Assembly (NCBI GenBank): GCA_963666985.2
Contig: CAXXIA010000002.1
Location: 2,688,001 to 2,752,000, forward strand
Direction: 5' to 3'
Source of the DNA: Spirochaetia bacterium
GTDB lineage: Bacteria > Spirochaetota > Spirochaetia > DSM-2461
DNA: 64,000 nt
Under the pieces are notes generated by a model. It was not told where the DNA came from. It made no database searches and saw nothing but the letters and a program-made list of their open reading frames with translations. Below are positions 1,578-23,934 of this stretch, in pieces; position 1 is the stretch's first letter, and the number at the start of each line of letters is the position of its first letter. A program made the position numbers and the translations under genes.

Positions 1578-1608
1578 TTGACCTTGGGACAGTTCCATAG
1601 TTTAGATT
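1578..1608 (+). promoter_or_regulatory. MerR-type promoter/operator 1 (cupin-SDR operon)
   Basis: TTGACC-TTGGGACAGTTCCATAGTT(19 bp)-TAGATT; dyad TGGGAC-A-GTTCCA in the spacer; similar copies at 10242-10272(-) and 16064-16094(+). Confidence 0.75.
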
Positions 1609-1800
1609 GAAAATGCGGATTTATAGAGGTGTTTTTACTTTGGTTTGCATGCCGGTTGGCAAGAGCGAAATGCTTTCGGCCATAGTAAAACGGCAAAGAT
1701 TCACGGTCCGAGTCGGCCTTGGAGCGTGGATATTCCTCTTTGATCTTTCTCGGATCCTTATCGGGAACCGTTATTTTAAGTCAACTTAAGGAGAATGAAA

Positions 1801-2127
1801 ATGAAGGTAGTTAAAGATGCCGCAGGCACACCGTATGAAGCTCCAAAACATTTTGGTGTTTACGGTATTCAAAAATTTGTACAGGAATCCGAAAGAGTGA
1901 AAGTTTCCTATTCTTATTTCCAGCCGGATGGCGGCTGTGAAATGACCGGCACTCCGACGGAGAAGATTTACTACGTTGTAAAGGGCTCCATAACAATCAA
2001 AGGAAAAAATGAAAGTCATGTGCTCAATCAGGGAGACATAATTTTCATTGCCGCGAATGAAGAGCGTGCAATGTCGATTAACGACGGCAAGCCTGCCGAA
2101 GTGCTCGTTTTTGTTATTAAGCCGTAA
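1801..2127 (+). CDS. Cupin domain protein
   Basis: Cupin barrel pattern (EKIYYVVKGSITI...LNQGDIIFIAANEER); SD AAGGAG; alternative start 1795. Confidence 0.8.
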   Translation: MKVVKDAAGTPYEAPKHFGVYGIQKFVQESERVKVSYSYFQPDGGCEMTGTPTEKIYYVVKGSITIKGKNESHVLNQGDIIFIAANEERAMSINDGKPAEVLVFVIKP

Positions 2128-2145
2128 TTTTGCAGGAGATGGAAA

Positions 2146-2910
2146 ATGAAAGATTTGTTCAGACTTGATGATAAAGTCGCCGTCGTTATCGGCGGCGCAG
2201 GCGGAATCGGCCAGTCCTGTTCCCTCGCTCTCAGTCAGCAGGGCGCCAAGGTGGTTATCGCCAGCCGGAATCGTGAGGCCATTGAAAAGGCGGCGGTTGA
2301 GATTAATAAAGAAACAGGGAATGAAACGGCCTTTTTTACGGTTGATACCTCCGACGAGGCAACCATCGGCAATCTGGTTGATCAGACCGTAAGCCGGTTC
2401 GGAAAGGTTGATATTCTGGTAAACGCCCAGGGGATGAATAAGAAAGGTCTTATTCTGGACTTCCCGGCTGAAGAATGGGACAAGCTTTTTGAGGTGAACG
2501 TTAAGGGTGTGATGCTTTGCTGCCGTACCTTCGCAAAGGCTATGAAGGAAAAGGGCGGAAAGATCATCAATATGTCTTCGGTTCGGGGCATCAGGGGAAC
2601 CGGCGGCGGAAATACCCCCTACGGCGCGACCAAGGGCGCCGTCGATATGATTACCCGAATGCTGGCGGCCGAATGGGCCGAGTATAATATCAATGTCAAC
2701 GCCATGGCTCCTTCCCTTGTTCTGACCGATGCCGTTAAAAAGGCCGTTGCTCCGGACCGTTTGAAAATGCTTGCCGCAAGCAGCCTGTTCAAGCGCCTCG
2801 GAACTCCCGAAGAAATGGCCGGCGCCTGTGTGTTTCTCGCCTCGCCCGCGGCCGATTTCATCACGGGACAAATCATTTACATTGACGGCGGTTTGACGGC
2901 CGTCGGTTAA
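2146..2910 (+). CDS. SDR family oxidoreductase, probably NADP(H)-preferring; candidate aromatic-ring (phloroglucinol-type) reductase
   Basis: GGAGGIG, NAQG, catalytic S..YGATK, ASRN after beta-2, IDGG. Confidence 0.9.
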   Translation: MKDLFRLDDKVAVVIGGAGGIGQSCSLALSQQGAKVVIASRNREAIEKAAVEINKETGNETAFFTVDTSDEATIGNLVDQTVSRFGKVDILVNAQGMNKKGLILDFPAEEWDKLFEVNVKGVMLCCRTFAKAMKEKGGKIINMSSVRGIRGTGGGNTPYGATKGAVDMITRMLAAEWAEYNINVNAMAPSLVLTDAVKKAVAPDRLKMLAASSLFKRLGTPEEMAGACVFLASPAADFITGQIIYIDGGLTAVG

Positions 2911-3050
2911 TTTGAAATTTTCATAAGTGACGTTTGGCGACTGGCCAAAAAGGCCGGATGGTGCATGACCCGCCGGCTTTTTTTATTCCCAAACGGGCGA
3001 GAGAAGCGAAGCATTATGGCAAAGCGGAGGGGCTGCGAAGAAGCTCCGCT

Positions 3051-3476
3051 TCAGGACAAGCTCCGGGTATTGAACCCTTTTATTTTTTCATAGATTTCAG
3101 GCAGTTTTTCTTCCAGATTTAAGGACTTCATGTCGGGGCCTGTCCAGATATGAAAGGATGTCGCCGTGCTGAGCGGAGCGGTCTCGCCGGAGCGAAACAG
3201 TTCGTATTCAAGTTCCAGTTTTTTCGGAGCATAGGATTTAACCTTCGTTTTTATCAGCAGGCTGTCGGGGTAATACGCCGGAGCAAGGTACTGAATGTTC
3301 AGGTTGACCATTGCGGGGTTGATGCCCAGCGAATCCATGTCCTGATAGGGAAATCCGATCTTGGCCATGATTTCCATACGGGCGATTTCATACCACAAGG
3401 GGTAAACAGCATGGTGCGCGATGCCCATTTTATCCACATCCGGATACCGTGTTGCAATGGAAGTTTCACAGATCAT
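3051..3476 (-). CDS. Acyl-CoA thioesterase (YbgC/4HBT hot-dog fold)
   Basis: RYPDVDKMGIAHHAVYPLWYEIAR motif; start moved to ATG 3476. Confidence 0.85.
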   Translation of the reverse strand: MICETSIATRYPDVDKMGIAHHAVYPLWYEIARMEIMAKIGFPYQDMDSLGINPAMVNLNIQYLAPAYYPDSLLIKTKVKSYAPKKLELEYELFRSGETAPLSTATSFHIWTGPDMKSLNLEEKLPEIYEKIKGFNTRSLS

Positions 3477-3673
3477 TTTCAGCCGTCCCTTCTTTATAAT
3501 ATAGCCTGAGGCAATTTCATACTCCATGAAATTGCTTCTATCTGATGCCCGAAATCCCCCCGAACGCGCTGAGGGGGGGGGGCAAAAGCCGCTGTTTTTT
3601 GGATTCACCTCACCGTGTAATAAAAACGAAGCGCTTTGAGCCTCGCGGCTTTTGGGAAGAAATCCTATTCCAT

Positions 3674-3708
3674 AAAAAATAGCCGGGAATCCAAGGACTC
3701 CCGGCTAT
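3674..3708 (-). terminator. Rho-independent terminator of the thiolase...bthL-like operon
   Basis: atagccggga/tcccggctat 10-bp stem, T-tract on the minus strand, 18 bp after the stop at 3727. Confidence 0.7.
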
Positions 3709-3726
3709 GGCGTTATCCGTTCTCTT

Positions 3727-4593
3727 TTAGGCTTTGGTCAGATAGGTCATTCCCAGGTAATGATCGGTATCCGTGAGTGCCGTGAGCTTAATCGGCGCAT
3801 ACCCTTCCTTAACGATTTCTATCTCGACGTTTTCTTTTTTAGGCAGCCATTCCACTTCCCAATCGCCGAAGTCGTTGGTGATTGCTTCAAAAACTTCTCC
3901 GCTTTTACGGCAGGTAATTTTGATTTTGGCGCCCACACAGACCTCTTCCATCTCTTCGGGGTAGTAAACGGTACCGGATAAGAAAACCGTGGGTACGTTA
4001 AGGTGAACGACATTCGTTTCCTTGCCTTCAAGCTCGGGCAGCTGCGTAACGCGGTTTTTGGCAATGATTTTAGACACTTCGCTTTCGGGGTTGTCCAAAT
4101 CGCCGAACACCAACGCGCCGTTGGGGCACGCCTCGACACAGCGCGGCTTTTTATACTCGGCACCCAGGTATGAAAGATAATTCGGATCATCCAGCAGCTC
4201 GGCGCACATGTTGCACTTTTGGGGCAGCTGTTTTTCTTCGTTCCAGTAGATCGCTCCCAGGGGACATGCGTCCGCAATCGCTTTTTGTCCCTTGGCTTTT
4301 ACAGGATCGATAATAACGATTCCGTCATCTCTTTTATAAACGGCTCCGTCCTTGGCCGCTTTCATGCAGGCCGGATCGGCGCAGTGTGAGCACGGAGTCG
4401 GAACCGTCGCCACTTTAATATGGCGGGAGTCGTCTCCGCGTTCCCATTCGCGGATGTCCATCCAAAATTGTCCCATCATGGGCTGAGAGGCGGACAGCTT
4501 TGTATCATAACCGCAGTGTTCATCTTTACAAGCGGTGTAGCAACAGTAGCAGGCCATGCAGGCTTTTGAGTCTATAGCAATTCCTAATCTCAT
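3727..4593 (-). CDS. bthL: 4Fe-4S small subunit of molybdoenzyme 1 (pyrogallol transhydroxylase beta/BthL-like)
   Basis: CMACYCCYTACKDEH, CSHCADPAC, ACPLGAIYWN, KCNMCAELLD, PRCVEACP plus the C-terminal beta domain (TNDFGDWE) characteristic of BthL; overlaps the large-subunit stop. Confidence 0.85.
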   Translation of the reverse strand: MRLGIAIDSKACMACYCCYTACKDEHCGYDTKLSASQPMMGQFWMDIREWERGDDSRHIKVATVPTPCSHCADPACMKAAKDGAVYKRDDGIVIIDPVKAKGQKAIADACPLGAIYWNEEKQLPQKCNMCAELLDDPNYLSYLGAEYKKPRCVEACPNGALVFGDLDNPESEVSKIIAKNRVTQLPELEGKETNVVHLNVPTVFLSGTVYYPEEMEEVCVGAKIKITCRKSGEVFEAITNDFGDWEVEWLPKKENVEIEIVKEGYAPIKLTALTDTDHYLGMTYLTKA

Positions 4594-7265
4594 TTTTTTA
4601 CCGCTTCCTTCGCTTTATTTTTGATTTTCTCCTGCATATGGAAGAATCCGTTACCCTCGATGATTTCAACGCATGTTTCGGCATCGGCATCGCCTTCTTT
4701 GGCAACCTTATCCAGCTTATGCTCGAAATACTGACCTTGAGGTATCGGGCCGTCGTACTTGCATACGTCGATGAGTGTTGAATTCGGCGCCATCCCGGGA
4801 ACCATATCGCCTATGAGCCGGCCCGGAGTAAGAACGTTGACGCAGCCGCCGATGTCCATGGAGCATTCACCGGGCTTTACGGGATTGTAAATGCCCGAAG
4901 AGCCGTAGGCGTGGATGGTGTTCTCCTCAACGCGGTAGGTTACCCGCGCGACACAGAGAACGCTTCCCCGCTCGTTGAACAAGAGAATGAGGTCTCCGTC
5001 TTTTATACCCTTTTCTTCCGCCTTTTTCGGGTGGATACGGGCGACAAGATAAGGGTTGCCGTTGATATACACGCGGTTTTCGGGGATTTCCCAGAACCAG
5101 GGCGTCGAGGAGTTGTGCTGTGTATGATAATCGAAGCGCGGGTGCGGGCTGATCAGGTGGAACGGATATTTTTTCGCCTTGAGGGAATGATGTCCTTCCC
5201 AGCTGTATTTATAGGTCGCGATGGGCGTGCGAACCTCGTCCTGAGGGGCCCAGTAGAGGAGCGACTCCGAGACGAACTCGAATTTTCCCGTAAAGGTGCC
5301 GAGCCTGCCTTCTTCCTGAAAGACCTTGTGGTTCGGCGTATCGCAGGGACGGTCTTCCACGAACCATCGGAATCCGGGATGACGTTCCCAATCCTCGGGC
5401 ACACCGGCAATGTAGTAGCCTTTTTTGGTAAAATCTTCCCAGCTGATTTTTTCGCACAGGTCGGATTTTTCCCAGAAACGCTTGCACCAGGCAAGCTCGT
5501 CCCGGCCTTCGGTAAATTCTTCGCCCCAGCCCAGACGCTCCGCGATTTGTGAGAAAATCCAGTAGTCCGAGCGGGATTCCCAAAGAGGTTCAATCGCCTT
5601 GTCCTGGAAAACAACGACCTGCCAGCTGCAGCCCGTTTGCGAGTGCGACTGATATCCGCCGTTTCCCGAGTTACAGAATTCACCGATGTCATAGCGTTCC
5701 AGATTGGTACACGCGGGCAGAATAACGTCGGCGAAACGGGATTCACCGTGAAAGTGAATGTCCTGATTCACGACGAATTCAAGTTCCGGACTTCGGTACA
5801 TTTTGACCCATTTGTTCGTGTCGAGCATACTGCCCATGAACGTGCCGCCGTATCTGTAGAACAGATGAACCTTGTTGGAGCCGGGTTCCGGATAGACGTG
5901 TTCGGTAAATTCCTGGTCGATACCGCCGCCGCAGAAGCCTTCTCCGTACCACTCGTAGTGGCCGTCTAAAATAGCATCCGGAAGGTTCGGACGGTAGAGC
6001 TTCTGCGTGACGCAGTTAACCGCGGTTTTGTCGGCAATCGGCTGATTGGCAATCTGGCTTAAGGGATCGGAATAGCCGCCGAACCAGAAGTTGTAGTCCA
6101 TCGGCGCGCCTGTTGTACCGGACCAGATATTCTGTCCCGGTTTGCCCATGCCCTGCATGGCGAAGAGCTGGACCATGAGTCTGGCGAATTCGGTACCGTT
6201 CGCCGTACGGCAAACTCCGCCGAAGCCGCCGCGCAGACCGGAGCCGCCCATGGTTTTGGTCGTTCCCCAGCGGCGGGCCAGCGCCTTAATATCAGCCGCC
6301 GGAATTCCCGTTTCGTTCTCACACCATTTCGGTGTTTTTGCCAGTCTGTCCGCGCCGTTACCCAGAATGTAGTCGGCCCATTCGTCAAATCTGTGGGCGT
6401 GCTTGGCGATGTATTCCTTATCGTAGAGACCTTCTGTGAGCCAGACATAGGCGATGCCCTCGCAAAGAGCCGCGTCCGTTCCGGGGCGGGGGCCGAACCA
6501 CTTATCCGCCTGCTTAACGGAAGAGAAATTGTTAAACGGATCGATATAGATGAATTGTACGCCCAAATCATCGAGCCAGTGACGCCACATGGTGGATTCG
6601 TTGCCGGCATATCCGCCTCTTGTCGTGTCGGGATCGTGCGACCACATAATCATGGTTTCAACGTTTTTCAGCGCGTCTTCCAAGAGGTCGAAGGCTTCGG
6701 TCCCGCCGAGCCGCCAATGGTAGCCGTAAGTATGCGGACAGCCCCATGTAAAACCTTCCCAGGAATCGGGATTGTCCAGAATTTGCGTGTAGCCGAGCAT
6801 TCTGAAAAAGCGGGCAAACGTGGATAATTTGTAGCCCAGAAGTCCCCAGCTGTGGTGGGAACTTGTAATGGCCGTAACGGACTCCTTGCCGTACGTATCC
6901 TGCACGCGCTTAATTTCGCGGGCGACCAGCGACAAAGCCTCGTCCCAGGTTGCCTTGCGGTAACCCGATTTCCCGCGGTTGTCCGTATTGCGGTTTTGAC
7001 CGTCGGGTGTTTCGACGAAATCCTCACGGATCATCGGGTAACGGATGCGGTCATATGAATAAGCGCGGTTTTTCTCGGTTAAGGCGATAAACGCGGGAGA
7101 CGTTTTTCTATGAGGGGTAAACTCCTTGCCGCGTGCTTTTATCGTCCAGCCCTTAGGATCGGTTTCGTTAAATACAATAGGCCTTACGCGTCTGATAACA
7201 CCATCTTCGGTATGTATCGCGATAGGTCCTCCGACACAGATACTGTGAGTAATTTTCTCGGCCAA
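4590..7265 (-). CDS. athL: Bis-MGD molybdoenzyme large subunit 1, close homologue of pyrogallol:phloroglucinol transhydroxylase AthL
   Basis: GGP N-terminus without an Fe-S Cys motif or Tat signal; TSSHHSWG, NPDSWEG (Ser ligand), WRLG.EAFDLLEDALK, ADVILPACTNLER, SPHPRF.YHT, GGCVNVLTP; TTG start with SD GGAGG. Confidence 0.85.
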   Translation of the reverse strand: MAEKITHSICVGGPIAIHTEDGVIRRVRPIVFNETDPKGWTIKARGKEFTPHRKTSPAFIALTEKNRAYSYDRIRYPMIREDFVETPDGQNRNTDNRGKSGYRKATWDEALSLVAREIKRVQDTYGKESVTAITSSHHSWGLLGYKLSTFARFFRMLGYTQILDNPDSWEGFTWGCPHTYGYHWRLGGTEAFDLLEDALKNVETMIMWSHDPDTTRGGYAGNESTMWRHWLDDLGVQFIYIDPFNNFSSVKQADKWFGPRPGTDAALCEGIAYVWLTEGLYDKEYIAKHAHRFDEWADYILGNGADRLAKTPKWCENETGIPAADIKALARRWGTTKTMGGSGLRGGFGGVCRTANGTEFARLMVQLFAMQGMGKPGQNIWSGTTGAPMDYNFWFGGYSDPLSQIANQPIADKTAVNCVTQKLYRPNLPDAILDGHYEWYGEGFCGGGIDQEFTEHVYPEPGSNKVHLFYRYGGTFMGSMLDTNKWVKMYRSPELEFVVNQDIHFHGESRFADVILPACTNLERYDIGEFCNSGNGGYQSHSQTGCSWQVVVFQDKAIEPLWESRSDYWIFSQIAERLGWGEEFTEGRDELAWCKRFWEKSDLCEKISWEDFTKKGYYIAGVPEDWERHPGFRWFVEDRPCDTPNHKVFQEEGRLGTFTGKFEFVSESLLYWAPQDEVRTPIATYKYSWEGHHSLKAKKYPFHLISPHPRFDYHTQHNSSTPWFWEIPENRVYINGNPYLVARIHPKKAEEKGIKDGDLILLFNERGSVLCVARVTYRVEENTIHAYGSSGIYNPVKPGECSMDIGGCVNVLTPGRLIGDMVPGMAPNSTLIDVCKYDGPIPQGQYFEHKLDKVAKEGDADAETCVEIIEGNGFFHMQEKIKNKAKEAVKK

Positions 7266-7268
7266 TTC

Positions 7269-7721
7269 CTACACCTCCACCAGCGATTGCGCGAGTTCGG
7301 AGGTTGGATCGATTTTAATCATACCGCCGACAAGAGAGCCGTTCACCACCTCAAAACACCGCAGGTTGTACACCTCCGACAAGGCAACCTTATACGTTTT
7401 ACCGTCGGCCGCTTTGTAAACGGAACCTGTTTTGAACATGTGCTGTACCATCATTTTTCCGCTCTTCGGCATTTTGCCTTTGCGCTTAAAGCTCGGCTGA
7501 ACGCCAAATCGCTCATCACGTAATACTCCGACGTTTTCCCAGCCGTCTATGGCCGAAAGCGCGTCTTCCATCGCCTTTGTTTCCTTAAGGGTCGGCACGC
7601 CCGTGCCGTTCAGGCCTTGGTACCAAAGCTGAAGGGGAGAGATTACTTCCCCTTGATAACCGTCAAGGTACTTCTTTACCAAAGCCGTCAGCTCCGAAGG
7701 ATCGTTTGGGATTTTTGCCAT
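7269..7721 (-). CDS. Hypothetical protein (150 aa) in the molybdoenzyme operon
   Basis: Tight packing between neighbours, SD GGAGA, protein-like composition; no family recognised. Confidence 0.75.
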   Translation of the reverse strand: MAKIPNDPSELTALVKKYLDGYQGEVISPLQLWYQGLNGTGVPTLKETKAMEDALSAIDGWENVGVLRDERFGVQPSFKRKGKMPKSGKMMVQHMFKTGSVYKAADGKTYKVALSEVYNLRCFEVVNGSLVGGMIKIDPTSELAQSLVEV

Positions 7722-7725
7722 GATA

Positions 7726-8139
7726 TCAGCTTCTCCCTTTTGTCTTTGTTTTTTGGTTTTCCCTGTTCGGGATGAAAAAATCTATGTCTTCGTTCAAATC
7801 CACATCCGCGCTTGGAAACATGTTTATGATGGCTTCTTCCGCACTGCACATAACGCCGTAAATGTTAAAATCCCTGCCGAATTCCACCGCGAATACGGAT
7901 TCGGCCACATCCAGCAGGTTTTTAACGATCGCGGTACCTTTGTCGTCTTTTCCGAAGCTTTTTCGACCGCCTTCGGAAAATCCCAAGGTATGAGAAAAAA
8001 CCATATATTCGTCCGCCGCATTAAAAATGTACAAAAAGTCATCATGAGAACGCCCCGCGACCATGGTACACGGGGAGAGTTCCTTTAATGCCGCTTCGGG
8101 ATCTTTTCCAAGAACGCTGATGTGAATTTCTTCATTCAT
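7726..8139 (-). CDS. Hypothetical protein (137 aa) in the molybdoenzyme operon
   Basis: ATGA overlap with the upstream BKACE stop; no family recognised. Confidence 0.75.
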   Translation of the reverse strand: MNEEIHISVLGKDPEAALKELSPCTMVAGRSHDDFLYIFNAADEYMVFSHTLGFSEGGRKSFGKDDKGTAIVKNLLDVAESVFAVEFGRDFNIYGVMCSAEEAIINMFPSADVDLNEDIDFFIPNRENQKTKTKGRS

Positions 8140-8984
8140 ACGTGTTTTGTCAGACCAAGAAGATCGCGGGCATCCTGTGCCGTCGCGATTTCCCTGTTGG
8201 TAATCTCGGACAGTTTCACGGCACGTTCGACAAGCTGGGCGTTTGTTGCCAGGACTCCTTTGTCGAAGTAGATGTTGTCTTCAAGACCCACGCGAAGTCC
8301 GTCGCAGCCTTCGGCAAGCCCCAGCAGCATGCAGGGAACGTGGAAACGGCCGATACCCGTGATGCTCCAGGTTGAACCCGGCAGCATTTTCGGCAAGAGG
8401 TAGCCCAGGCTCTCGGCATCACCGTCCATACCGCCGGCCACGCCCAGGACGAACTGATAATGCACGGGTTCTTTTATAAAACCGTGTTTAACATAGTATT
8501 TAATCGCACCCATCATGCCGGCGTCGAAAATCTCGCATTCGGGTTTAATATTAAGCTCTTGTGAAACCATGCCCAGCTTCTCAAGAAACGCCGGGGTATT
8601 CAGGAACACGCTTTTGTAGCCCCAGTTAATTGTACCGGGATCGTAGGAACACATTTCGGGCTTGCACTCGGCAAGCTGGTTCAGGCGGAGTTCGTCCGAG
8701 AACTTTGAACCGGAAGTTGTCAGGTTGAGTACGACATCAAGATTTTCTTTCGCAAGACCTTCACGAGCTTTGTCGCAAACTTCCTTGAACACTTCCGTGT
8801 CCATGCAGTTTACCCCATCCTTGTCCCTGACATGAATGTGGGCGATCGCGGCACCCGCTTTGGCGCAGTTCACAACGTCCTGTGCGATTTCATCGGGTGT
8901 GATCGGTACGTTGGGGTTTTGCGCTTTTGTTGTGCCCGCACCGGTGAGACACGCTTGAATAATGACCTTTTTCGATTTTGCCAA
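8136..8984 (-). CDS. Beta-keto acid cleavage enzyme (Kce/DUF849 family)
   Basis: PNVPITPDEIA, AHIHVRD, LNLTTSG, KPECEIFDAG, RVGLEDN metal-binding motifs. Confidence 0.92.
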   Translation of the reverse strand: MAKSKKVIIQACLTGAGTTKAQNPNVPITPDEIAQDVVNCAKAGAAIAHIHVRDKDGVNCMDTEVFKEVCDKAREGLAKENLDVVLNLTTSGSKFSDELRLNQLAECKPEMCSYDPGTINWGYKSVFLNTPAFLEKLGMVSQELNIKPECEIFDAGMMGAIKYYVKHGFIKEPVHYQFVLGVAGGMDGDAESLGYLLPKMLPGSTWSITGIGRFHVPCMLLGLAEGCDGLRVGLEDNIYFDKGVLATNAQLVERAVKLSEITNREIATAQDARDLLGLTKHV

Positions 8985-9005
8985 TTTATTTATCCCTCCA
9001 AATTT

Positions 9006-10205
9006 TTATACAGCTTCAACGATAACCGCCTGACCCATTCCGCCTGCGATGCAGAGTGAGGCAAGCCCGTATTTTGAACCGCGGCGGCGCATTTCATGTA
9101 AAAGAGTTACGATGATTCTGGCGCCGGAGCTGCCCACAGGGTGCCCCAATGCGATCGCGCCGCCGTTTACGTTTGTAATTTCAGGATTCAAACCGAGTTC
9201 GCGAATACATCCGAGCGACTGCGCCGCAAAGGCTTCGTTCAGTTCGATCAGCTCGATTTGCTCCAGGCTAAGGCCTGTTTGCTCCAATACCTTTTTTATC
9301 GCGGGAACGGGGCCCAAACCCATGATTCTCGGATCAAGGGCGGCCGTCGCATGCCCTTTGATAACGGCCATCGGCTTCATGTTCAGCTCTTCGGCCTTTT
9401 CCTCGGACATCAGGATCAGGGCGGACGCGCCGTCGTTTCTGCCGGAGGCGTTGCCCGCCGTAACGGTTCCCGTACCGTCGGAACGGAATGCCGGTTTGAG
9501 GTTCGCGAGTTTTTCCAAAGAGGTTTCGCGGGGATATTCATCCACCTCGAATATGATCGGATCTTTTTTTCGTCCCTGGGGAACCGATACGGGGACGATT
9601 TCATCTTTAAATTTCCCCGCTTTGATCGCCTCGGCCGCACGCAGCTGAGAGGTGAGCGCGAATTGATCCTGATCTTCACGGCTGATGTTCATTTTTTCGG
9701 CGACGTTTTCCGCCGTGAGGCCCATATTGAACGAACCGTATATTTCTTCGGGCTGAGATTTAAACTGTCCTTCGGTAAGGGAATCGACAAACTGAGTGGT
9801 TCCGGTACCGACGCCGTAGCGGGCGTTTCTGACATAGAAAACGGCGTTCGACATACTTTCCGTACCGCCCGCCAGAACCACGTCGTTTTGCCCGCAGGCA
9901 ATGGACATCGCTCCGTTGACAACCGCCGTCATTCCCGATGCGCATTGACGCATAACCGTATATGCCGGAGTTTCTTCCGGGATTCCGCACCTCAGCGCCG
10001 CAATTCGTGCGATATTCGGATTATCGGAGCTTTGACGGCAGTGCCCCATGATGACTTCGTCGATTTCCTTAGGCGCGATTTTGCTGCGTTCCAAGGCGCC
10101 GCCGATGACGGCACATGCAAGCGCATCCGCGTCGAGGGGACGCAGGGAGCCGCCCATGCTTCCTACGGCGGTTCTGCATGCTTCGACTATAACGACTCTT
10201 TTCAA
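9006..10205 (-). CDS. Acetyl-CoA C-acetyltransferase (thiolase)
   Basis: [25 protein letters not shown] motifs. Confidence 0.95.
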
Positions 10206-10241
10206 GAGTAAAACCTCCTTATTTTTCGTATCCTGCGAAAA

Positions 10242-10272
10242 AGTCTAAACTCTGTAATCGTTCAGGGGTCAA
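10242..10272 (-). promoter_or_regulatory. MerR-type promoter/operator 2 (thiolase-BKACE-athL-bthL operon)
   Basis: Minus strand TTGACC-CCTGAACGATTACAGAGTT(19 bp)-TAGACT; the -35 overlaps the LysR stop codon. Confidence 0.75.
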
Positions 10273-14876: not shown

Positions 14877-14926
14877 GATCCTTTTCTCGGCGGAGTGTCT
14901 TCCTGAAAAACGATAATAAAAGCCTT

Positions 14927-15733: not shown

Positions 15734-16063
15734 AACAATAATTATTACCGTCCGGGCAGGATAATTATATAAAAAAATATATAAAAGGAAGAATAAAAAG
15801 TCCACGCATTGCCTCACGGGGGTAGGTTCGCCGGGAGGGAGAGTCGGCAGAATCGGCCTGCCCGGGTGGCGTGCTCCCCGATAACGGCCGGAACGATGTG
15901 CTCTCCTTCCGCCCAGGCTCTCAATCCGCTGCCATGAATATTTTCTTTAAGAGAACAGGTTCCCAAAAGGACCGATAAGGCCGCCTTATAGCCGCCATCC
16001 GATGTTTCCCGCCATGGATTGAGAACCCGGAAGATCGTCTGAAAAAACGCCGATATTAATTCC

Positions 16064-16094
16064 TTGACCTTAGAACAATCCCAGAGTTTACCAT
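16064..16094 (+). promoter_or_regulatory. MerR-type promoter/operator 3 (cyclase...TRAP operon)
   Basis: TTGACC-TTAGAACAATCCCAGAGTT(19 bp)-TACCAT; 22 of the first 27 nt match the copy at 1578. Confidence 0.78.
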
Positions 16095-16127
16095 GATTTT
16101 AAATCAGATATTTGGAGGTATCTTCCT

Positions 16128-17015
16128 ATGGCCTATATGCCGCTTGATAAAAGCAAAATGTATCTTGATCGCAGCAAAATGACCAGGATTTACGATTTGA
16201 GTCAGCCTTGGGGCGTGGACACCCCCCTCTGGCCTTTCCCCGGCCCTCGTCAGGATTTACAGTTTCCACGAGGTCAGTACCTCGGACGTTTTCACAAACG
16301 GACATTCACTTACACGGGTACGCTTCATGCCGGTACCCATATGGACGCTCCCAACCATGTTCTCCATGAGGAAGAGTGCGACCGTGAGCGGAACGGATAC
16401 ACCCTGGCCGAGATTCCTCTGGAGTATGCCATCGGAACAGGTGTTATTCTCGACATGCGCCACTTGCAGAAAGAGTTTGAAGAAACATGGGTTACGGGTT
16501 TTGAAAAGGGCCTTTGGCGTATCATCACTCCTGAAGATGTTGAGAAGGCGTGTGCTAAGGACGGCCTTGAAATCCGTGAAAACGACTGGGTGGTTATCAA
16601 CACGGGCTTCCATAAATATTGGAGAACGAACAACGACAAGTATTACAACTACTATCCGGGTATGGGCCCTGAATTGGCGAAATATCTTGTCCATGAGAAG
16701 AAAATAAAAGGCATTACCGGTACATGGGGCGCAACCGACGCACCTTTATGGCACTGTCCGCTTTCGGAGCAGATGCCCTGGCTTGATAAAGCGTATCGAA
16801 AAGCTTACGGCACGGATCCGGCGCTTGAGTATCCGGATTATGAACCTTGTCACCGCATTTACATGCAGGCGGGCGTGTGCACGGTGGAGAATGCCGGCGG
16901 TGAAATCGATACGGTTACCGGTAAGCGTATGATTATCGCGGCGTTTCCTTTCCGCTGTGAAATAGCCGACGGCGGGTTTGTTCGTCTTGCCGCTTGGGAT
17001 GAGGGGTCTTTTTAA
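16128..17015 (+). CDS. Cyclase-family (kynurenine formamidase-like) metal hydrolase
   Basis: HAGTHMDAPNH matches HxGTHxDxPxH; C-terminal VEN and DGGFVR. Confidence 0.9.
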   Translation: MAYMPLDKSKMYLDRSKMTRIYDLSQPWGVDTPLWPFPGPRQDLQFPRGQYLGRFHKRTFTYTGTLHAGTHMDAPNHVLHEEECDRERNGYTLAEIPLEYAIGTGVILDMRHLQKEFEETWVTGFEKGLWRIITPEDVEKACAKDGLEIRENDWVVINTGFHKYWRTNNDKYYNYYPGMGPELAKYLVHEKKIKGITGTWGATDAPLWHCPLSEQMPWLDKAYRKAYGTDPALEYPDYEPCHRIYMQAGVCTVENAGGEIDTVTGKRMIIAAFPFRCEIADGGFVRLAAWDEGSF

Positions 17016-17977
17016 TGAACTCTCTTAGCGATATCCAAAAAATCGCTGTTCTCGGGGCCGGTACCATGGGCCCCGGAATCGCACAGATTTTTGCCATCGG
17101 CGGTTATCCGGTCACAATGTGGACAAGAAGTGAAGCCACAAGAGAAAAGGCGAAAGAAACACTCTATAAGAGTCTTAAAACTTTTGCCGAAGAGGATTTA
17201 ATCCCCGCCGATAAGGTTGAGGAAGTTTTTGCCCGAGTCGATTTTGCACTTACCGTGGAAGAGGCCGTTAAAGGTGCCGATTTCATTATGGAAACAATCG
17301 TTGAGAACAAAGACGCCAAATCCCAGCTTTTCGCTCAGCTTGATCAATGCATCGGCGACGATTGCATCATCGCATCGAACACATCGGGGCTGAACATCTT
17401 CGAAATCGTTCCCGAAAACCGCCTGAAGCAAATGATGATCGCCCATTGGTACGCTCCCGCTCAGCTCATCCCTCTGGTCGAGGTTGTGAAGAGCGAACAG
17501 GCACCCGAGGCTTATGCATCCATTACCGTGGACTTGCTTGAAAAATGCGGTAAAACCGCGGTGCTTATGAAAAAGTTCATTCGCGGCTATATCGCGAACA
17601 GAATGCAGATGTGTCTGAATCAGGAACTCTTTTATCTTCTTGACAACGGCTACTGCTCCGCGGAGGACGTTGATAAAGCGGTCAAAGCAAGCTTTATTCC
17701 CCGTGCCGTTGTTCTGGGATTGTGCAAGCGTGCCGATTTCGGCGGACTTGATATGACCGCCAACAACTATAAAAACAAGAGCTACACCATGCCTCCGGAA
17801 GTGGATATGCCCAAAACCTTGGCGGATCATATCGAGAAAGGTGAATTGGGACTTAAAACGGGCAAAGGATTCTACGACTACGGCAATGTTGATAAACAGG
17901 CTCTCTTGGCAAAGCGGGACAAGCAGCTTTTTGAGATTTTCAAGGTTGCTAAGAAATTCATGGACGACCCGGTGTAA
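17015..17977 (+). CDS. 3-hydroxyacyl-CoA dehydrogenase family protein
   Basis: GAGTMG, ETIVEN, ASNTSGL, AHWYAPAQLIPLVEV, GYIANRMQ, KTGKGFYDY; TAATG coupling to the cyclase gene. Confidence 0.92.
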   Translation: MNSLSDIQKIAVLGAGTMGPGIAQIFAIGGYPVTMWTRSEATREKAKETLYKSLKTFAEEDLIPADKVEEVFARVDFALTVEEAVKGADFIMETIVENKDAKSQLFAQLDQCIGDDCIIASNTSGLNIFEIVPENRLKQMMIAHWYAPAQLIPLVEVVKSEQAPEAYASITVDLLEKCGKTAVLMKKFIRGYIANRMQMCLNQELFYLLDNGYCSAEDVDKAVKASFIPRAVVLGLCKRADFGGLDMTANNYKNKSYTMPPEVDMPKTLADHIEKGELGLKTGKGFYDYGNVDKQALLAKRDKQLFEIFKVAKKFMDDPV

Positions 17978-17995
17978 TTCAAAGGAGAAAAGGCA

Positions 17996-18652
17996 ATGTC
18001 AATGAACAAAGAAGCGGCACTTCAGGAGGTGCTGGCCCGATTTAAAGACGGACAAACCATTATGTGTGCCGGTTTTACCAACGTCGGTTCCGCCAACAAA
18101 TTGATCAAAGCCGTCTCGGATGCCGGTTTTAAAGATTTGAATATCATCGCAAACGATGCCGGTAACGACAAGCAAGACGGTATCGGCACATTCATCTGCC
18201 GAAAACAGGCTCAATCGCTCACGGCAAGCCATGTCGGTCTTAATCCTAAGGTCGCGGAACAAATGAACGAAGGAACTTTGAAAGTAACCTTGGTTCCTCA
18301 AGGAACTCTCGCCGAGCGTATTCGCTGCGGCGGATACGGTCTGGGGGGTGTTTTGACGCCCACGGGCGTCGGTACCGTTGTGGAAGAAGGCAAGCAAGTG
18401 ATTGAACGTGACGGGAAGAAATATCTGCTTGAAACGCCTCTGCGCGCCGAAATCGCACTGATTAAGGCATGGAAGGCCGACAGAAACGGCAACCTCGTTT
18501 ATCGGCGGGCGGCACGGAATTTCAATCCGGTTATGGCGACGGCGGCCGATTTCGTTATTGCCGAGGTGGAAGAAATTGTCGAAACCGGTGAGATCGATCC
18601 CGATGCGGTCATGACTCCGGGAATCTGTGTCGACATGATCGTCAAGCTCTAA
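17996..18652 (+). CDS. atoD: Acetoacetate/3-oxoacid CoA-transferase subunit A
   Basis: SHVGLN, PQGTLAERIRCGG.GLGGVLTPTGVGT, ARNFNPVMA. Confidence 0.9.
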   Translation: MSMNKEAALQEVLARFKDGQTIMCAGFTNVGSANKLIKAVSDAGFKDLNIIANDAGNDKQDGIGTFICRKQAQSLTASHVGLNPKVAEQMNEGTLKVTLVPQGTLAERIRCGGYGLGGVLTPTGVGTVVEEGKQVIERDGKKYLLETPLRAEIALIKAWKADRNGNLVYRRAARNFNPVMATAADFVIAEVEEIVETGEIDPDAVMTPGICVDMIVKL

Positions 18653-18665
18653 GGAGGAGCGTCGA

Positions 18666-19304
18666 ATGACAGGCAGAGAATATATTGTTTCGCGGGCGGC
18701 GAAGTTTTTCAAAGACGGCGACGTCGTCAACCTGGGCATCGGTATGCCCACGCAGGTCGCAAATTATCTCCCCGAGAATGTGCACATTATCCTTCAGTCG
18801 GAAAACGGCTTTATCGGAATCGGCGCCACTCCTTCCGAAGACGAATGGGATCATGATGTTGTAAACGCGGGCGGACAGCCGTCATCAATCGTGGCCGGCG
18901 GCTGCACGTTCGACAGCGCGACAAGCTTCGGCCTTATTCGCGGCGGACACGTGGATGCTACGGTTTTGGGCGCGCTGGAGGTTGATCAGGAGGGTAATCT
19001 GGCAAACTGGATTATCCCGGGCGTCAGAGTTCCCGGTATGGGCGGCGGCATGGATCTGGTCGTCGGCTCAAACCTTGTCATCATAACCATGGAACACTGC
19101 ACCAAGAAGGGTGAGTCCAAGATTCTCAAGAAGTGCACGCTTCCTTTAACGGCCGCGGGCCAAGTCGACTATATCGTTACGGATATGGGCGTTTTTCACT
19201 GTACGGATAAGGGCCTTGTTCTTGAAGAGCTCGCTCCCGGTGTAACGGTAGATGATGTTAAGGCGAAAACAGAAGCCGATTTGATTCTATCGGACAGTCT
19301 TTAA
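18666..19304 (+). CDS. atoA: Acetoacetate/3-oxoacid CoA-transferase subunit B
   Basis: VNLGIGMPT, LQSENG (catalytic Glu), GMGGGMDL, CTLPLT. Confidence 0.9.
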   Translation: MTGREYIVSRAAKFFKDGDVVNLGIGMPTQVANYLPENVHIILQSENGFIGIGATPSEDEWDHDVVNAGGQPSSIVAGGCTFDSATSFGLIRGGHVDATVLGALEVDQEGNLANWIIPGVRVPGMGGGMDLVVGSNLVIITMEHCTKKGESKILKKCTLPLTAAGQVDYIVTDMGVFHCTDKGLVLEELAPGVTVDDVKAKTEADLILSDSL

Positions 19305-19319
19305 GAAGAGGTTAGGAAC

Positions 19320-20720
19320 TTGACGATCCAGTTAATTATTATTGTGGCTTATTTTGCCCTTACCGTCGCCATCGGCATGATTGCTCAAAAGAAATCAAAA
19401 TCCGCTACGGCATTTCACGGTGCGGGACTGGGTGTGCTTATGTGCGTTTGTGCCGGCACCGGCGAATGGCTGGGGGGCACATCAACGACCGGAGTATCCG
19501 AGTACGGTTATACGTATGGTCTCTCCGGCTCCTGGTACACGCTCGCAAACGGTATCGGCGTTATCTTCCTGGCTTTACTGTTCGCAAAGCTTTACAGAAG
19601 TCTTGAAACGGTTACCGTTCCGGGAATTTTGGAGAAATTCATCGGCGTACACGCCCGTGTCGTTTCAAGCATCATGCTGACCTTCGTTATGCTCGCCGTC
19701 GGCATTTCCCAGATGATTGCCGCAGGCACATTGGGTGTTACGCTGCTGGGGTTGGACTTCAACGTAGCCGTAATCGCTTTCGCGATTGTCTTCATTATCT
19801 ATACTCTGGCGGGCGGTATGAACGCGGTCGCCAGTACCAATATTCTGCATCTGTTCGCAATGTACGGCGGTATCGTGATTGCCCTTTTATTCGCGCTGAA
19901 AGCCGTCGGCGGCATGGGCGTTGTTTCGGAAACTCTTCCCGAATCATATTTTTCCATGACCGCCATCGGTATGCCGAAGGTTTCGTCCTGGATTATCGCT
20001 TCCCTGCTCGGCGCCTGTACCGCTCAGGCCGGTATTCAGCCGATCCTGGCCGCCAAGGATACGAATGTCGCTAAAAAGGCCGCGATTATTACGGCCGTCA
20101 TTGTTGCTCCCTTCGGTCTGCTGACCGCTCTTCTCGGTATGATCGCCAAGGTTCAGTTCCCCAACCTCGAGAACGCCAAGCTTGCTCTGCCGACGTTAAT
20201 GCTCAGCCTGCCTCCCGTAGCCGGAGGTATCGTCCTTGCATCCATTCTCGCGGCGATCCTTTCAACGGTTTCGCCTATCATCCTGGCATCGGGAACGATG
20301 ATTACAAAGGATGTTTACCATAGAATCCTGAAAACCGACGCCAGCGACGAACAGGTTCTCAGAATGTCCAGAATTACCACCGCGATAGCGGGGGTGATCT
20401 GTACAATCGGCGCACTTCTCATGTACGGTTCCACGCGAATCCTGGACATTGTCTACTTCGCGTACTCAATTCGGGGCGCTCTGTTTGTCGTTCTTCTGTT
20501 TGGTATTTATTGGAAAAAGCTTTCCGAAAAGGGTGCCGTTTACAGCATGATTTTAACCGCCGCCGTAGGCTGTTTCTGGGTTGTGTTTAAAGCAATCACC
20601 GGCAGCAATCCGATCCACGCCGCGTTTACGGAAACCTATGCGGCGGTGATTACCGCGACAATTGCCTCGGTGATCTTTACGAAGATATTCCCTAAAGATA
20701 TGTCTGCAAAGAAATTATAA
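19320..20720 (+). CDS. Sodium:solute symporter (SSS) family transporter
   Basis: About 13 hydrophobic segments; YTLAGGMNAVASTN and LAAILST motifs. Confidence 0.9.
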   Translation: MTIQLIIIVAYFALTVAIGMIAQKKSKSATAFHGAGLGVLMCVCAGTGEWLGGTSTTGVSEYGYTYGLSGSWYTLANGIGVIFLALLFAKLYRSLETVTVPGILEKFIGVHARVVSSIMLTFVMLAVGISQMIAAGTLGVTLLGLDFNVAVIAFAIVFIIYTLAGGMNAVASTNILHLFAMYGGIVIALLFALKAVGGMGVVSETLPESYFSMTAIGMPKVSSWIIASLLGACTAQAGIQPILAAKDTNVAKKAAIITAVIVAPFGLLTALLGMIAKVQFPNLENAKLALPTLMLSLPPVAGGIVLASILAAILSTVSPIILASGTMITKDVYHRILKTDASDEQVLRMSRITTAIAGVICTIGALLMYGSTRILDIVYFAYSIRGALFVVLLFGIYWKKLSEKGAVYSMILTAAVGCFWVVFKAITGSNPIHAAFTETYAAVITATIASVIFTKIFPKDMSAKKL

Positions 20721-20746
20721 TAAAATAACCGCGTTATTGGAGGAAT

Positions 20747-22054
20747 ATGATGGAACCGATTTCCATTGCAGTCCTAGGCATTATTCTGCTGATCATTCTG
20801 CTCGCAATGGGCATGAATATCGGTATTACTATGTTTGCCGTAGGCTTTCTCGGCTGCCTGATGATCCGCGATTGGAATGCCGCGATAGGCGTTCTGAAAA
20901 CCGTACCGTTTAACCAGAGTATGACCTATTCCTATACGGTTATACCGCTTTTCGTTCTGATGGGACAATTCGCCTTTCACTCGGGGATGTCCGCCGATCT
21001 CTTCGACTGTGCCAACAAGTGGCTTGGGGGGTTGAAGGGCGGACTTTCCATGGCGACCATCATGGCCTGTGCCGGCTTCGCGGCCATTTGCGGCTCCACC
21101 GCCGCCACCGCGGCGACCATGGGCGTCGTCGCTCTTCCGGAAATGCGTAAAGCGGGCTATAACGACGGTCTTTCGACCGGCTCCATTGCCGCCGGCGGGA
21201 CACTCGGCATTCTCATCCCCCCCAGTACGGGCTTCATTATTTACGGCATCGTCGCCGAGCAGTCCATCGGGAAACTGTTTATGGCGGGAATTATCCCCGG
21301 AATCGTTTTGGCGGTGTGCTATATGATTTCCGTTTCCGTACAGGTTAAGATCCGTCCCGAGCTGGCCCCGCCCACAAATAAGTTCGGTTTTAAAGAAAAA
21401 TTAATCGCCCTGAAGGGCGGCGCCGCGATGATCGCTCTTTTCCTTATCGTTATCGGCGGTATGTTCATCAATCTCTTTACGGCAAATGAGGCGGCGGCCG
21501 TCGGCGCGTCTCTGGCCCTGATTTATCTTATCGCCCGCCGCCGTTTTTCACTGAAGGTTCTTATAGCCTGTCTGCGCGATACCGTGAAAACTTCCGCCAT
21601 GGTGTTTCTCATCATGATCGGCGCCTACGTGTTCGGATCTTTCCTGGCCATCGCACGGCTTCCCATGACTCTTGCGGCCTTCGTTGAGGGACTTGCCGTA
21701 AGCCGATATGTGATTCTGGCCGTAATCGTCCTGCTTTATGCCGTTATGGGCTGTCTTATGGATTCCCTGGCAATGGTTATGCTGACCGTGCCCATTTTCC
21801 TTCCGATAATCATGGGTCTCGGATTCGATCCCATCTGGTACGGCGTTTTGATGATCATGGTTATGGAAATGGGCCTGATTACGCCGCCGGTTGGAATGAA
21901 TGTCTATATCGTCGCGGGCGTCGCGAAGGATGTTCCCTTAACAAGAATCTTCAGAGGCGTAACGCCGATGGTTTTTGCGATGCTGGTGGCGATTGTGATT
22001 GTTATCGCCTTGCCTCAGCTTTCACTCTGGCTCCCCAGCTTCATGGCCGGTTAG
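20747..22054 (+). CDS. dctM: TRAP transporter large permease
   Basis: IPLFVLMG, GTLGILIPPS, LITPPVGMN. Confidence 0.95.
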   Translation: MMEPISIAVLGIILLIILLAMGMNIGITMFAVGFLGCLMIRDWNAAIGVLKTVPFNQSMTYSYTVIPLFVLMGQFAFHSGMSADLFDCANKWLGGLKGGLSMATIMACAGFAAICGSTAATAATMGVVALPEMRKAGYNDGLSTGSIAAGGTLGILIPPSTGFIIYGIVAEQSIGKLFMAGIIPGIVLAVCYMISVSVQVKIRPELAPPTNKFGFKEKLIALKGGAAMIALFLIVIGGMFINLFTANEAAAVGASLALIYLIARRRFSLKVLIACLRDTVKTSAMVFLIMIGAYVFGSFLAIARLPMTLAAFVEGLAVSRYVILAVIVLLYAVMGCLMDSLAMVMLTVPIFLPIIMGLGFDPIWYGVLMIMVMEMGLITPPVGMNVYIVAGVAKDVPLTRIFRGVTPMVFAMLVAIVIVIALPQLSLWLPSFMAG

Positions 22055-22108
22055 TTCCTATCCGGAACATGCATGCTGTTATTTATATATAATTTTTGGA
22101 GGTTGTTA

Positions 22109-23239
22109 ATGAAAAGGACTTTTGCATCGTTTATTGTCATTCTTTTGACGATCGGACTGGTGGCCTTTACCGGCTGCGGTAAGTCAAAAGCGGAAGCTGG
22201 CGCCGACGGATCGGCCGCTAAGGATTCCGGAAAAGTGTACGAACTGATCGTACAAAACCACGATCCCGCCACCAGCATCTGCGGGCAGTACGTTGAAGCC
22301 TGGGGCTCGGAAGTCGAGAAAGCTTCAAACGGACGCATCAAGTTCGCTTACTACCACGGCGGCTCTCTTGTCGGCGCGGGCGACTCGGTTAATGCCGTAG
22401 TCAACAGTACTGCGGATGTCTGCTGGAGTGCCGCGACCATTTATTCCGGTCAGTTCCCCATCTCGGAATTCATCCAGCTCCCTCTTTCCGGCATCAATTG
22501 CGCCCGGATGGGATGCGAAGTCATGCTGGATATGTACAAAGAGATTCCGGCCTTCCAGAAGGAGTATTCCGAATTCAAGCCCATTATGCTCGGCAGCTGT
22601 ACTTACGCGCCCGTGAGTACAACCGTGAAAAAGCTTCAGACGGTTAACGACATCCAAGGCCTGCGTATCCGCGCCCCCGGTTCCACCTGCGCGCTGTGGT
22701 GTACCGCCGTCGGTTTCAGTCCGATGACCGTCGCCACGCCCGAAACGTATGAATCACTCGAAAAGGGCGTTATTGAAGGCTGCTTGAACGACTGGCACAA
22801 TATTTCCGCATTCAAGCTGTATGAAAACCTTGACTATATCATGGACTATCCGACTCCCGGTTCACCCATTTTCCTTCTGATGAATAAAGGAAAATATGAT
22901 TCCATGCCGGCTGATCTTCAGGCGATCATTGATAAGTACTCCGATGAATACGCCTCTCAAATGGCGGGGATCTACTGGGATTCCACACGAGCTTGGATTT
23001 ATGACAACGCCGAAGAATTCGGTGTGGAGATTTACCAGCCGTCCGATGAACTGTACGCTCACTTCACGGCCGACACTGTCAAGGATCAGGTACACGCCAA
23101 GTACATCGAGTACCTTAACGGTTTCAATCTTGATGGACAGGCGATATACGATCAGTGTATGGAAATCGTTTCTCGTTATACCGACAAATACGCCGATCCC
23201 TGGGCGGAACCCGTCGATATCGAGGATTTTAAAGGCTGA
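22109..23239 (+). CDS. dctP: TRAP transporter substrate-binding lipoprotein
   Basis: Lipobox FTGC; VEKASNGRIK, GLRIRAPG, ETYESLEKGVIEG; start moved to 22109 (SD GGAGG). Confidence 0.9.
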   Translation: MKRTFASFIVILLTIGLVAFTGCGKSKAEAGADGSAAKDSGKVYELIVQNHDPATSICGQYVEAWGSEVEKASNGRIKFAYYHGGSLVGAGDSVNAVVNSTADVCWSAATIYSGQFPISEFIQLPLSGINCARMGCEVMLDMYKEIPAFQKEYSEFKPIMLGSCTYAPVSTTVKKLQTVNDIQGLRIRAPGSTCALWCTAVGFSPMTVATPETYESLEKGVIEGCLNDWHNISAFKLYENLDYIMDYPTPGSPIFLLMNKGKYDSMPADLQAIIDKYSDEYASQMAGIYWDSTRAWIYDNAEEFGVEIYQPSDELYAHFTADTVKDQVHAKYIEYLNGFNLDGQAIYDQCMEIVSRYTDKYADPWAEPVDIEDFKG

Positions 23240-23246
23240 AGCCGCG

Positions 23247-23378
23247 CCGGACTGTTGAAAAATGATTCGCGGAATCGCTGTGCGGTTCCGCTGTTTGGGG
23301 AGATTCGATTCGCAGATTACGAGCAAATCCCGCTGCCGCCGAACACCGCTTACGCGTAAAAGTTTTTCAACGGCCCGG
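23247..23378. mobile_element. Putative MITE (132 bp) between dctP and dctQ
   Basis: Terminal inverted repeats ccggactgttgaaaaa / tttttcaacggcccgg (14/16), resembling IS ends of the CTGTTGAAAAA type; no ORF inside. Confidence 0.5.
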
Positions 23379-23406
23379 TTGAGTCTGCGTTATACGGAAA
23401 GGATTG

Positions 23407-23934
23407 ATGCAAATGAAAAAATTTACTGAGATAACCAATAAACTTACAGTGTACGTCAGCTATCTGAGCATGGTGTCGGTGATATTCATCATGCTGTATA
23501 TGACGCTCGATGTCATCTTGAGACATGTTTTTAACTCGCCGATCAAAGGCGGCTATGAAATGACCACTCTTGCCATGGTTGTTCTTATTTTCACATCCTG
23601 GTCGTATACGCAGACGGTTAACGGACATATCCACGTGACAATGCTGATTAGGGCTTTGCCGAGAAAACCGAGGTTTATCATATTCGCGATTACATCGATG
23701 TTTTCCGCCGCGGTGATTGTTATTGCTACGTATGCCGCTTTTCTGCAGATGCTCTACACGTACGAGAAATGTAATTGTACGGGTATGCTCCTTATTCCGC
23801 ATTGGCCGTTCATTCTTGTGGAATGTATCGCTTTGGGCTACTTCGCTTTAATACTGCTGCGCGATGCCATACGGGCGATAATGGCGATCTTCAACGAAGA
23901 GCTCGCGCAGGAGATTGAATCTCACTGGGCCTGA
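23407..23934 (+). CDS. dctQ: TRAP transporter small permease
   Basis: DVILRHVFNSPIKGGYE and HIHVT motifs, four TM segments. Confidence 0.9.
   Translation: MQMKKFTEITNKLTVYVSYLSMVSVIFIMLYMTLDVILRHVFNSPIKGGYEMTTLAMVVLIFTSWSYTQTVNGHIHVTMLIRALPRKPRFIIFAITSMFSAAVIVIATYAAFLQMLYTYEKCNCTGMLLIPHWPFILVECIALGYFALILLRDAIRAIMAIFNEELAQEIESHWA

Follow-up and report, generated by a model that had tools for sequence, protein, structure and literature searches.

A predicted polyhydroxybenzene ring-fission cassette with two transhydroxylase-family molybdenum enzymes, likely of clostridial origin, in a spirochaete genome

What does a block of genes built around two molybdenum enzymes of the pyrogallol:phloroglucinol transhydroxylase (AthL/BthL) family do in a spirochaete, and is it the known phloroglucinol pathway? 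The block lies in a 64,000-nucleotide stretch (the window) of the Spirochaetia bacterium assembly GCA_963666985.2 (contig CAXXIA010000002.1, positions 2,688,001 to 2,752,000), and all coordinates given here are window positions. An initial annotation, made from the sequence letters, had read it as a phloroglucinol-type catabolic island. The family layout of that reading stands, but orthology to the known pathway does not (28 to 50% identity for the lower enzymes, 45%/35% for the two large subunits against AthL), so that it is a matter of resemblance, not membership: the cassette likely works like the pyrogallol/phloroglucinol pathway, as far as its predicted proteins tell, without belonging to it by orthology. 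Here, we argue that its substrate is likely a polyhydroxybenzene from plants, distinct from plain phloroglucinol and fermented through the same chemistry by sister-lineage enzymes, a reading to which we give an even chance.

The region contains 21 intact open reading frames (ORFs) in four differently oriented blocks, two regulators among them. Each family named in the initial annotation (short-chain dehydrogenase/reductase [SDR], cupin, cyclase, dehydrogenase, DUF849, CoA-transferase, thiolase, thioesterase, and two uptake systems) was matched above its curated Pfam cut-off by an intact window ORF; four ORFs had gone unlisted (LysR, MerR, hyp1, and hyp2). The first ORF starts at 1795, and position 1578, from which the region had been counted, is no gene start.

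The families had been assigned to steps exactly as in the design that the available text of Zhou et al. 2023 (PMC10470551) shows biochemically for Clostridium scatologenes: PGR (an SDR), DPGC (cyclase), TfD (3HCDH family), TAL (a cleavage enzyme for beta-keto acids [BKACE]), a thiolase, and a CoA-transferase. As canonical reference we used cluster L151, whose four enzymes match the C. scatologenes lengths (262, 312, 311, and 281 aa) and whose SDR is a true orthologue of PGR (5G4K/5G4L, E 2e-104). Against it, the window SDR (2146..2910, + strand; PF13561), a predicted NADPH-dependent ring reductase, is 33% identical; the predicted ring opener, a cyclase-family metal hydrolase (16128..17015, +; PF04199), 28%; the 3-hydroxyacid dehydrogenase (17015..17977, +; 3HCDH family) 34%; and the BKACE (DUF849; 8136..8984, −; PF05853, 302 bits) 50%. 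Flavonifractor orthologues of the C. scatologenes enzymes run at 55 to 75% (CsTfD, 55%). PGR 5G4K is absent among the 40 PDB matches listed for the window SDR at E<=1e-35, and the cassette cyclases form their own clade (support, 100), with few full-length relatives between it and the rest of the family. Membership in the canonical phloroglucinol pathway was rejected on identity, on the cyclase tree, and on pocket residues; judged from their sequences, the ring-fission enzymes are sister lineages to the PGR, DPGC, TfD, and TAL enzymes, not their orthologues.

The suggested comparison with characterized phloroglucinol enzymes thus held for the catalytic residues, not for orthology. The SDR alignment retains an Arg at the NADPH 2'-phosphate loop and the catalytic Ser, Tyr, and Lys. 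In the cyclase the metal-binding His/Asp motif (H49, T52, H53, D55, P57, and H59) is invariant and DPGC Trp20 is kept, whereas DPGC Tyr22 is Phe in 117/120 homologues. The dehydrogenase keeps TfD S122, H143, and N194, and its cofactor loop reads W-T-R (in 45 of 47 rows, with loci that overlap counted separately), which suggests an NADP-type enzyme that would balance the NADPH spent by the SDR. A balance of this kind is discussed for Pelobacter acidigallici in the available text of PMC10470551. In the BKACE, H48, H50, R225, and E229, corresponding to the Zn-binding His/His/Glu and the catalytic Arg, are invariant, and Gly replaces the diagnostic TAL Trp16 (the KCE Glu14 position): among 27 rows this position is Gly in 21, Ala in 1, Trp in 3, and unparsed in 2, the three with Trp coming from clusters without A- or B-type molybdenum enzymes. 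We counted the combination of conserved catalytic residues and consistently changed pocket residues in favour of a different substrate.

Set beside the C. scatologenes pathway as described in the available text (PMC10470551), the cassette is alike in its six protein families, in catalytic and metal-binding residues, and in having a cupin (1795..2127, +; PF07883; 39% identical to the cupin of L151) directly upstream of the SDR. It differs in TAL Trp16, DPGC Tyr22, and the W-T-R loop, and in being coupled to two molybdenum enzymes, a thioesterase, a tripartite ATP-independent periplasmic (TRAP) transporter, and a sodium:solute symporter (SSS). The 3-oxoacid CoA-transferase subunits A and B (17996..19304, +) are of the AtoD/AtoA type (TIGR02429 and TIGR02428 above cut-off), and the thiolase (9006..10205, −) is cassette specific, 50% identical to the canonical-cluster thiolase and 75% to the cassette copy of Sporobacter termitidis.

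How do the two molybdenum enzymes fit? Two complete AthL/BthL-type pairs had been claimed, and both are there: enzyme A (large subunit 4590..7265, −; Fe-S small subunit 3727..4593, −, matching 4v4c_B at E 2.6e-39) and enzyme B (large subunit 11325..14057, +; small subunit 14061..14876, +). Both large subunits match PF21423 (AthL domain 1) above cut-off, and their best PDB match is P. acidigallici AthL (4v4c_A; PDB 4V4C/D/E), at 765 bits for A and 472 for B versus at most 247 for DMSO reductases. They are 31 to 33% identical to each other, and an AthL orthologue (L152) scores 1,756 bits to AthL. A quick IQ-TREE analysis (39 sequences without Pelobacter or RehL; Shimodaira-Hasegawa-like approximate likelihood ratio test [SH-aLRT] support only) placed A and B in clades apart from canonical AthL (L152), with support of 100 for the B clade. 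Domain and PDB matches keep both in the AthL family, the quick tree sets them in clades apart from canonical AthL, and on these sequences neither is an orthologue of the Pelobacter enzyme.

Active-site positions were numbered on 4v4c_A, with AthL H144, D174, Y404, and Y560 taken as catalytic or gate residues and R153, W354, and C557 as pocket residues. All 20 A-type rows keep S143, H144, Y152, D174, S175, W176, Y404, F468, and Y560, as AthL does, and share the changes R153K, W354F, and C557S, C557 adjoining a two-residue insertion. All 74 B-type rows keep only H144, D174, S175, and W176. The D-S-W motif with its Ser ligand position (S175) is thus present in every row of both types, and Ser ligation of the RhL/PgtL branch is described in the available text of PMC10100899. 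The small subunit of A lacks the third ferredoxin motif (the motif of the fourth Fe-S cluster), as does Pelobacter BthL, whereas that of B, by motif alignment of the partners, has all four of its Cys and thus a fourth [4Fe-4S] motif; it is found in 44/49 B partners, 0/19 A partners, 0/8 A-like partners, and 0/5 canonical or other partners. From these features we infer for A a redox-neutral shuttling of hydroxyls and for B an exchange of electrons with the cell. The rebuilt pocket and the fourth cluster motif together suggest that B performs a net hydroxylation or dehydroxylation. The initial annotation's pair of transhydroxylase-family enzymes holds for the family, but B is probably no second redox-neutral transhydroxylase.

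A functional model for B, by description only (available text of PMC10100899), is the resorcinol hydroxylase of Aromatoleum anaerobium (RhL of RehLS), a net hydroxylase and Ser-ligated RhL/PgtL member that hydroxylates a phenol serving as electron donor; unlike B, it belongs to an organism that respires nitrate and whose lower pathway is oxidative. Annotated AthL/BthL complexes, two per genome, have already been published for the sediment Chloroflexi RBG-2 and RBG-1351, and the available text describes no linked lower pathway or A/B distinction for them (PMC3971608).

Put together, the predictions would give the following route. The substrate would enter through the TRAP transporter (DctM, DctP, and DctQ by Pfam; 20747..23934, +) or the SSS (19320..20720, +; PF00474); both have homologues in genome G442, the symporter (72%) inside its version of the cassette and the TRAP genes (76/63/49%) beside its cassette cyclase. 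B, whose fourth Fe-S cluster would connect it with an external electron partner, would add or remove one ring hydroxyl, A would move a ring hydroxyl as AthL does, and the two would yield a 1,3,5-trihydroxy ring with an extra group, either a hydroxyl (as in 1,2,3,5-tetrahydroxybenzene) or a carbon side chain. A series of hydroxyl transfers leading into ring fission of the phloroglucinol type would have a precedent in Pelobacter massiliensis, in which Brune, Schnell and Schink reportedly found in 1992 that hydroxyhydroquinone is converted to phloroglucinol by sequential transhydroxylations. The SDR would reduce the ring with NADPH, the cyclase would open it by retro-Claisen hydrolysis to a 3-hydroxy-5-oxo acid, and the dehydrogenase would oxidize this acid, regenerating NADPH. 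The BKACE with acetyl-CoA would then cleave the product to acetoacetate and a substituted acetoacetyl-CoA; acetoacetate would be recycled by the CoA-transferase, acetyl-CoA released by the cassette thiolase, and the leftover acyl group freed by the 4HBT-type acyl-CoA thioesterase (3051..3608, −; PF03061/PF13279). Ring-fission chemistry of the phloroglucinol type is likely.

Is the cassette one pathway, and whose is it? Loci were surveyed as the best 80 of 233 confirmed stretches found with enzyme B (76 to 87% identical), many of them short. Clostridia are named in the titles of 75 (Oscillospiraceae, Clostridiales, Sporobacter, and Papillibacter), and 3 carry different names; within the part in view, 27 have an A or A-like gene and 12 the cyclase. 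One stretch of S. termitidis DSM 10068 holds CoA-transferase, BKACE, dehydrogenase, cyclase, MerR, SDR, thiolase, A pair, hyp2, B pair, and cupin, with identities to the window of 87% for A, 83% for B, 83% for the cyclase, and 70% for the dehydrogenase; core genes are 70 to 88% identical to Oscillospiraceae copies. The differently oriented blocks with their two regulators, and an SDR, a cupin, and a BKACE from other subfamilies than in the nearest cassettes, could mean that the island is a mosaic of unrelated modules with no single pathway. We hold this to be very improbable, given that S. termitidis, G714, L003, and others carry this gene set as a contiguous block and that its members co-occur at genome level. 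Of 301 genomes sampled from Sporobacter's family, 79 have the cassette cyclase (two genomes with 35 to 40% cyclase matches were scored as without, 64 weaker rows fell outside the listing, and at most three candidates were scored per genome); among the matches listed, an AthL-family gene occurs in 78/79 genomes with the cyclase versus 18/222 without it, and the cyclase occurs in 63 of 64 genomes with A-type genes. The initial annotation had named a lack of co-occurrence elsewhere as refuting its proposal, and the genes are found together in many other genomes. Many of the cassette genomes of this family derive from rumen, gut, and digester samples.

Lower-pathway variants were also seen. L135:7660-15410 and L161:6422-11777 hold a third one, with two tandem cyclases of other clades beside an A-like (49 to 51%) molybdenum enzyme. 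L133:5545-11624 has a duplicated cyclase of 272 aa, together with TRAP genes and a BKACE of the Trp type, resembling the approximately 39% DPGC-like group in the table of Zhou et al. as far as available (PMC10470551).

Is the substrate plain phloroglucinol after all? An isoenzyme route, in which A turns pyrogallol into phloroglucinol, B supplies or recycles 1,2,3,5-tetrahydroxybenzene, and the lower enzymes turn plain phloroglucinol into acetyl-CoA, is a possibility we take seriously while doubting it. It would explain why A keeps H144, D174, S175, Y404, and Y560 with a BthL-like small subunit, and why the cupin-SDR order is as in canonical clusters. Against it, sister lineages stand in for all of the lower enzymes and for the thiolase, Trp16 is lost, and three genomes retain both sets: G440, G441, and G442 each hold a canonical PGR (57 to 58%), DPGC (84 to 85%), and canonical-type AthL plus the cassette cyclase, which hints at a different substrate. 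The cassette's own thiolase lineage and frequent thioesterase were counted the same way. An AroY/gallate-type decarboxylase (E<1e-100) is present in 19/79 cassette genomes and 18/222 others, and the 60 cassette genomes showing none likewise speak against the isoenzyme route; gallate-to-pyrogallol conversion as a general feed was rejected on this count. AthL-family expansions were seen in G442, G440, and G441 (16, 9, and 8 PF21423 matches), and tandem B-like paralogues lie beside B in L067 and L073.

S. termitidis is a case that fits the isoenzyme route. It O-demethylates syringate and vanillate and cleaves their rings according to the available text of PMC4585845. Its AroY-type decarboxylase, of the gallate/protocatechuate type, scores 666 bits to 5o3n; no canonical PGR, DPGC, or AthL orthologue was found in its draft genome, and its PF06050 matches are double-cubane reductases or fall below the benzoyl-CoA reductase cut-offs. 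Ring cleavage, this decarboxylase, and the cassette as the only set fit plain conversion of pyrogallol to phloroglucinol equally well, and this is one of several points that weigh against a different substrate. Others are that the thioesterase has a homologue in only 10 of the 80 loci; that G440 holds two canonical DPGC copies, so that coexistence of the two sets is no proof of different substrates; that the 301 sampled genomes are kin and thus non-independent; that identity to the S. termitidis copies is only 43% for the window SDR and 51% for the window BKACE, which makes the roles of these two less secure; and that many B genes lie without a lower pathway in view, so that B may work independently of it. 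Neighbour clustering of 627 unassigned ORFs yielded molybdenum uptake and cofactor genes and a major facilitator superfamily transporter, with no clue to the substrate.

A further candidate substrate is a hydroxylated N- or O-heterocycle that the cyclase would open as an amide or lactone. Among the relatives of the cyclase, isatin hydrolases alone have solved structures, the second-best NCBIfam match of the dehydrogenase is a pyridine-catabolism enzyme (far below cut-off), and the B pocket has lost most AthL residues. A nevertheless keeps the vicinal-diol catalytic set, the chain of dehydrogenase, BKACE, and CoA-transferase needs a 3-hydroxy and then a 3-oxo acid, as phloroglucinol-type rings yield, and the best-studied carrier grows only on methoxylated aromatics (available text of PMC4585845), all of which make a heterocycle improbable. 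A polyhydroxybenzene other than plain phloroglucinol stays our preferred reading, and between the headline of the initial annotation and its own caveat of another substrate, the caveat is the likelier reading. In a bolder form, which we offer tentatively as something well short of an even chance, the cassette would be a second route, uncharacterized so far, for anaerobic opening of the ring of a substituted polyhydroxybenzene, carried by about one-quarter of the genomes sampled from a dominant gut family and exported to spirochaetes; B would be the first fermentative net hydroxylase or dehydroxylase of the transhydroxylase family, making or removing the tetrahydroxybenzene on which transhydroxylases depend; and the cassette would supply the ring-cleavage route that is missing for S. 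termitidis.

How did the spirochaete come by it? The host genome (G000; completeness, 93%) has three matches to FlaA, which we take to be a spirochaete marker and which gave none in 14 control genomes; the host is a spirochaete, as had been thought probable. In five same-genus genomes (G404, G406, G407, G410, and G411) the site is empty, with htpG, between one and three omp genes, and rrf2 lying directly together, and DNA similarity to same-genus genomes ends at about 1338 and resumes at about 24177. The cassette is an insertion of about 22.8 kb (genomic island 1340..24176, no strand assigned) between htpG-omp and rrf2. No att sites, boundary repeat, integrase, or GC shift were seen. One short-read contig is identical to the window over 1103-20400 (0 differences) and a second crosses the left junction (500-9456, 0 differences), which disfavours an assembly chimera there; the matching short-read runs are possibly from the source sample itself. 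A base at 18343, in the CoA-transferase A gene, is absent in one contig of run X2 and present in run X1 and the window, the absence probably being an assembly error. Genome G412 has approximately 34 kb of other, unrelated genes between rrf2 and htpG (G412:C1:1049526-1083272), which may make this site a hotspot for insertions. The htpG and rrf2 markers lie far apart in G405 and G409.

The only PF21423 genes in the host are A and B, the domain is found in 2/400 other genomes of the spirochaete phylum, and the cassette cyclase was not found in 40 relatives of the host (best matches, 29 to 41%). A spirochaete-specific dual-molybdoenzyme trait was rejected: the cassette is mainly clostridial. Both window enzymes nest among Bacillota sequences in the quick tree; taken together with the empty site and with how rare the genes are in the phylum, this makes acquisition from Clostridia likely. 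Another member of the phylum, G183, has an A-type gene (87%) and cyclase (82%); this genome (L098-L101) also has four AthL-family genes, an SDR 55% identical and thus closer to that of the window, and eight corrinoid cap domains.

The host genome encodes MoaA and MoeA-, MobA-, and ModAB-like genes, so that it likely makes the molybdenum cofactor. Canonical PGR and DPGC were not found elsewhere in it with the queries used (best, 31 to 33%; 35% over part), nor, in this 93% complete genome, was a PF02607 (corrinoid cap) match indicating O-demethylation or a PF06050 match indicating benzoyl-CoA reductase; one UbiD is present, with no role assigned. The lack of a canonical set and of a corrinoid cap domain, and the single UbiD, make the host likely dependent on free phenols released by other organisms.

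No published description of the sister cassette was found in a literature search whose coverage left out most subscription papers, and neither in the DPGC list of Zhou et al. (supplement 4) nor in the examined part of their cblaster table (PMC10470551) was S. termitidis found. Annotation by family would name the cassette a phloroglucinol pathway, yet it is a separate lineage in 79/301 sampled genomes; should its substrate be a different one, what commonly happens to plant phenols in guts and sediments is being assigned wrongly. With the whole cassette and no canonical set, the type strain S. termitidis DSM 10068 makes this directly testable, and enzyme B gives access to the question of how fermenters use external electrons to add hydroxyls to the ring or remove them. 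The spirochaete copy and the mapped empty site in its relatives make a clear case of likely cross-phylum transfer.

The remaining cassette genes are regulators and two short ORFs. The LysR regulator (10269..11282, −; PF00126/PF03466) is divergent from enzyme B and has a homologue of at least 50% identity in 9/80 B loci, and the MerR regulator (14927..15817, −; PF13411; 13/80 loci) is divergent from the cyclase operon. Neither hyp1 (7269..7721, −; 16/80 loci, with A in view in 12 of those) nor hyp2 (7726..8139, −; 19/80 loci, with A in view in 15 of those) matched Pfam or NCBIfam or gave a usable Atlas match; the predicted model of hyp2 (pLDDT, 81) gave no clear fold match (best, Z 5.5). Both accompany A-type genes, yet are absent from the L004-L006/L038 subgroup, and are candidate accessory or maturation factors.

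Outside the island, 842-1339 (+) encodes a small secreted or outer-membrane-like protein with no family match, present at the site in one to three tandem copies in same-genus genomes. A PtsP-like phosphoenolpyruvate-protein phosphotransferase is listed at 24786-27467 (−); its family match begins at residue 152, so that the true start lies downstream of the listed one, which overlaps proC. An [FeFe]-hydrogenase cluster at 41100-46694 (−), with a group A6 HydA, a GltD-like flavoprotein, and NuoF- and HoxE-like subunits, is a possible source of NAD(P)H from H2; the HydA ORF spans profile positions 2-427 of 571 and NuoF begins at position 42, which may reflect frameshifts or split ORFs.

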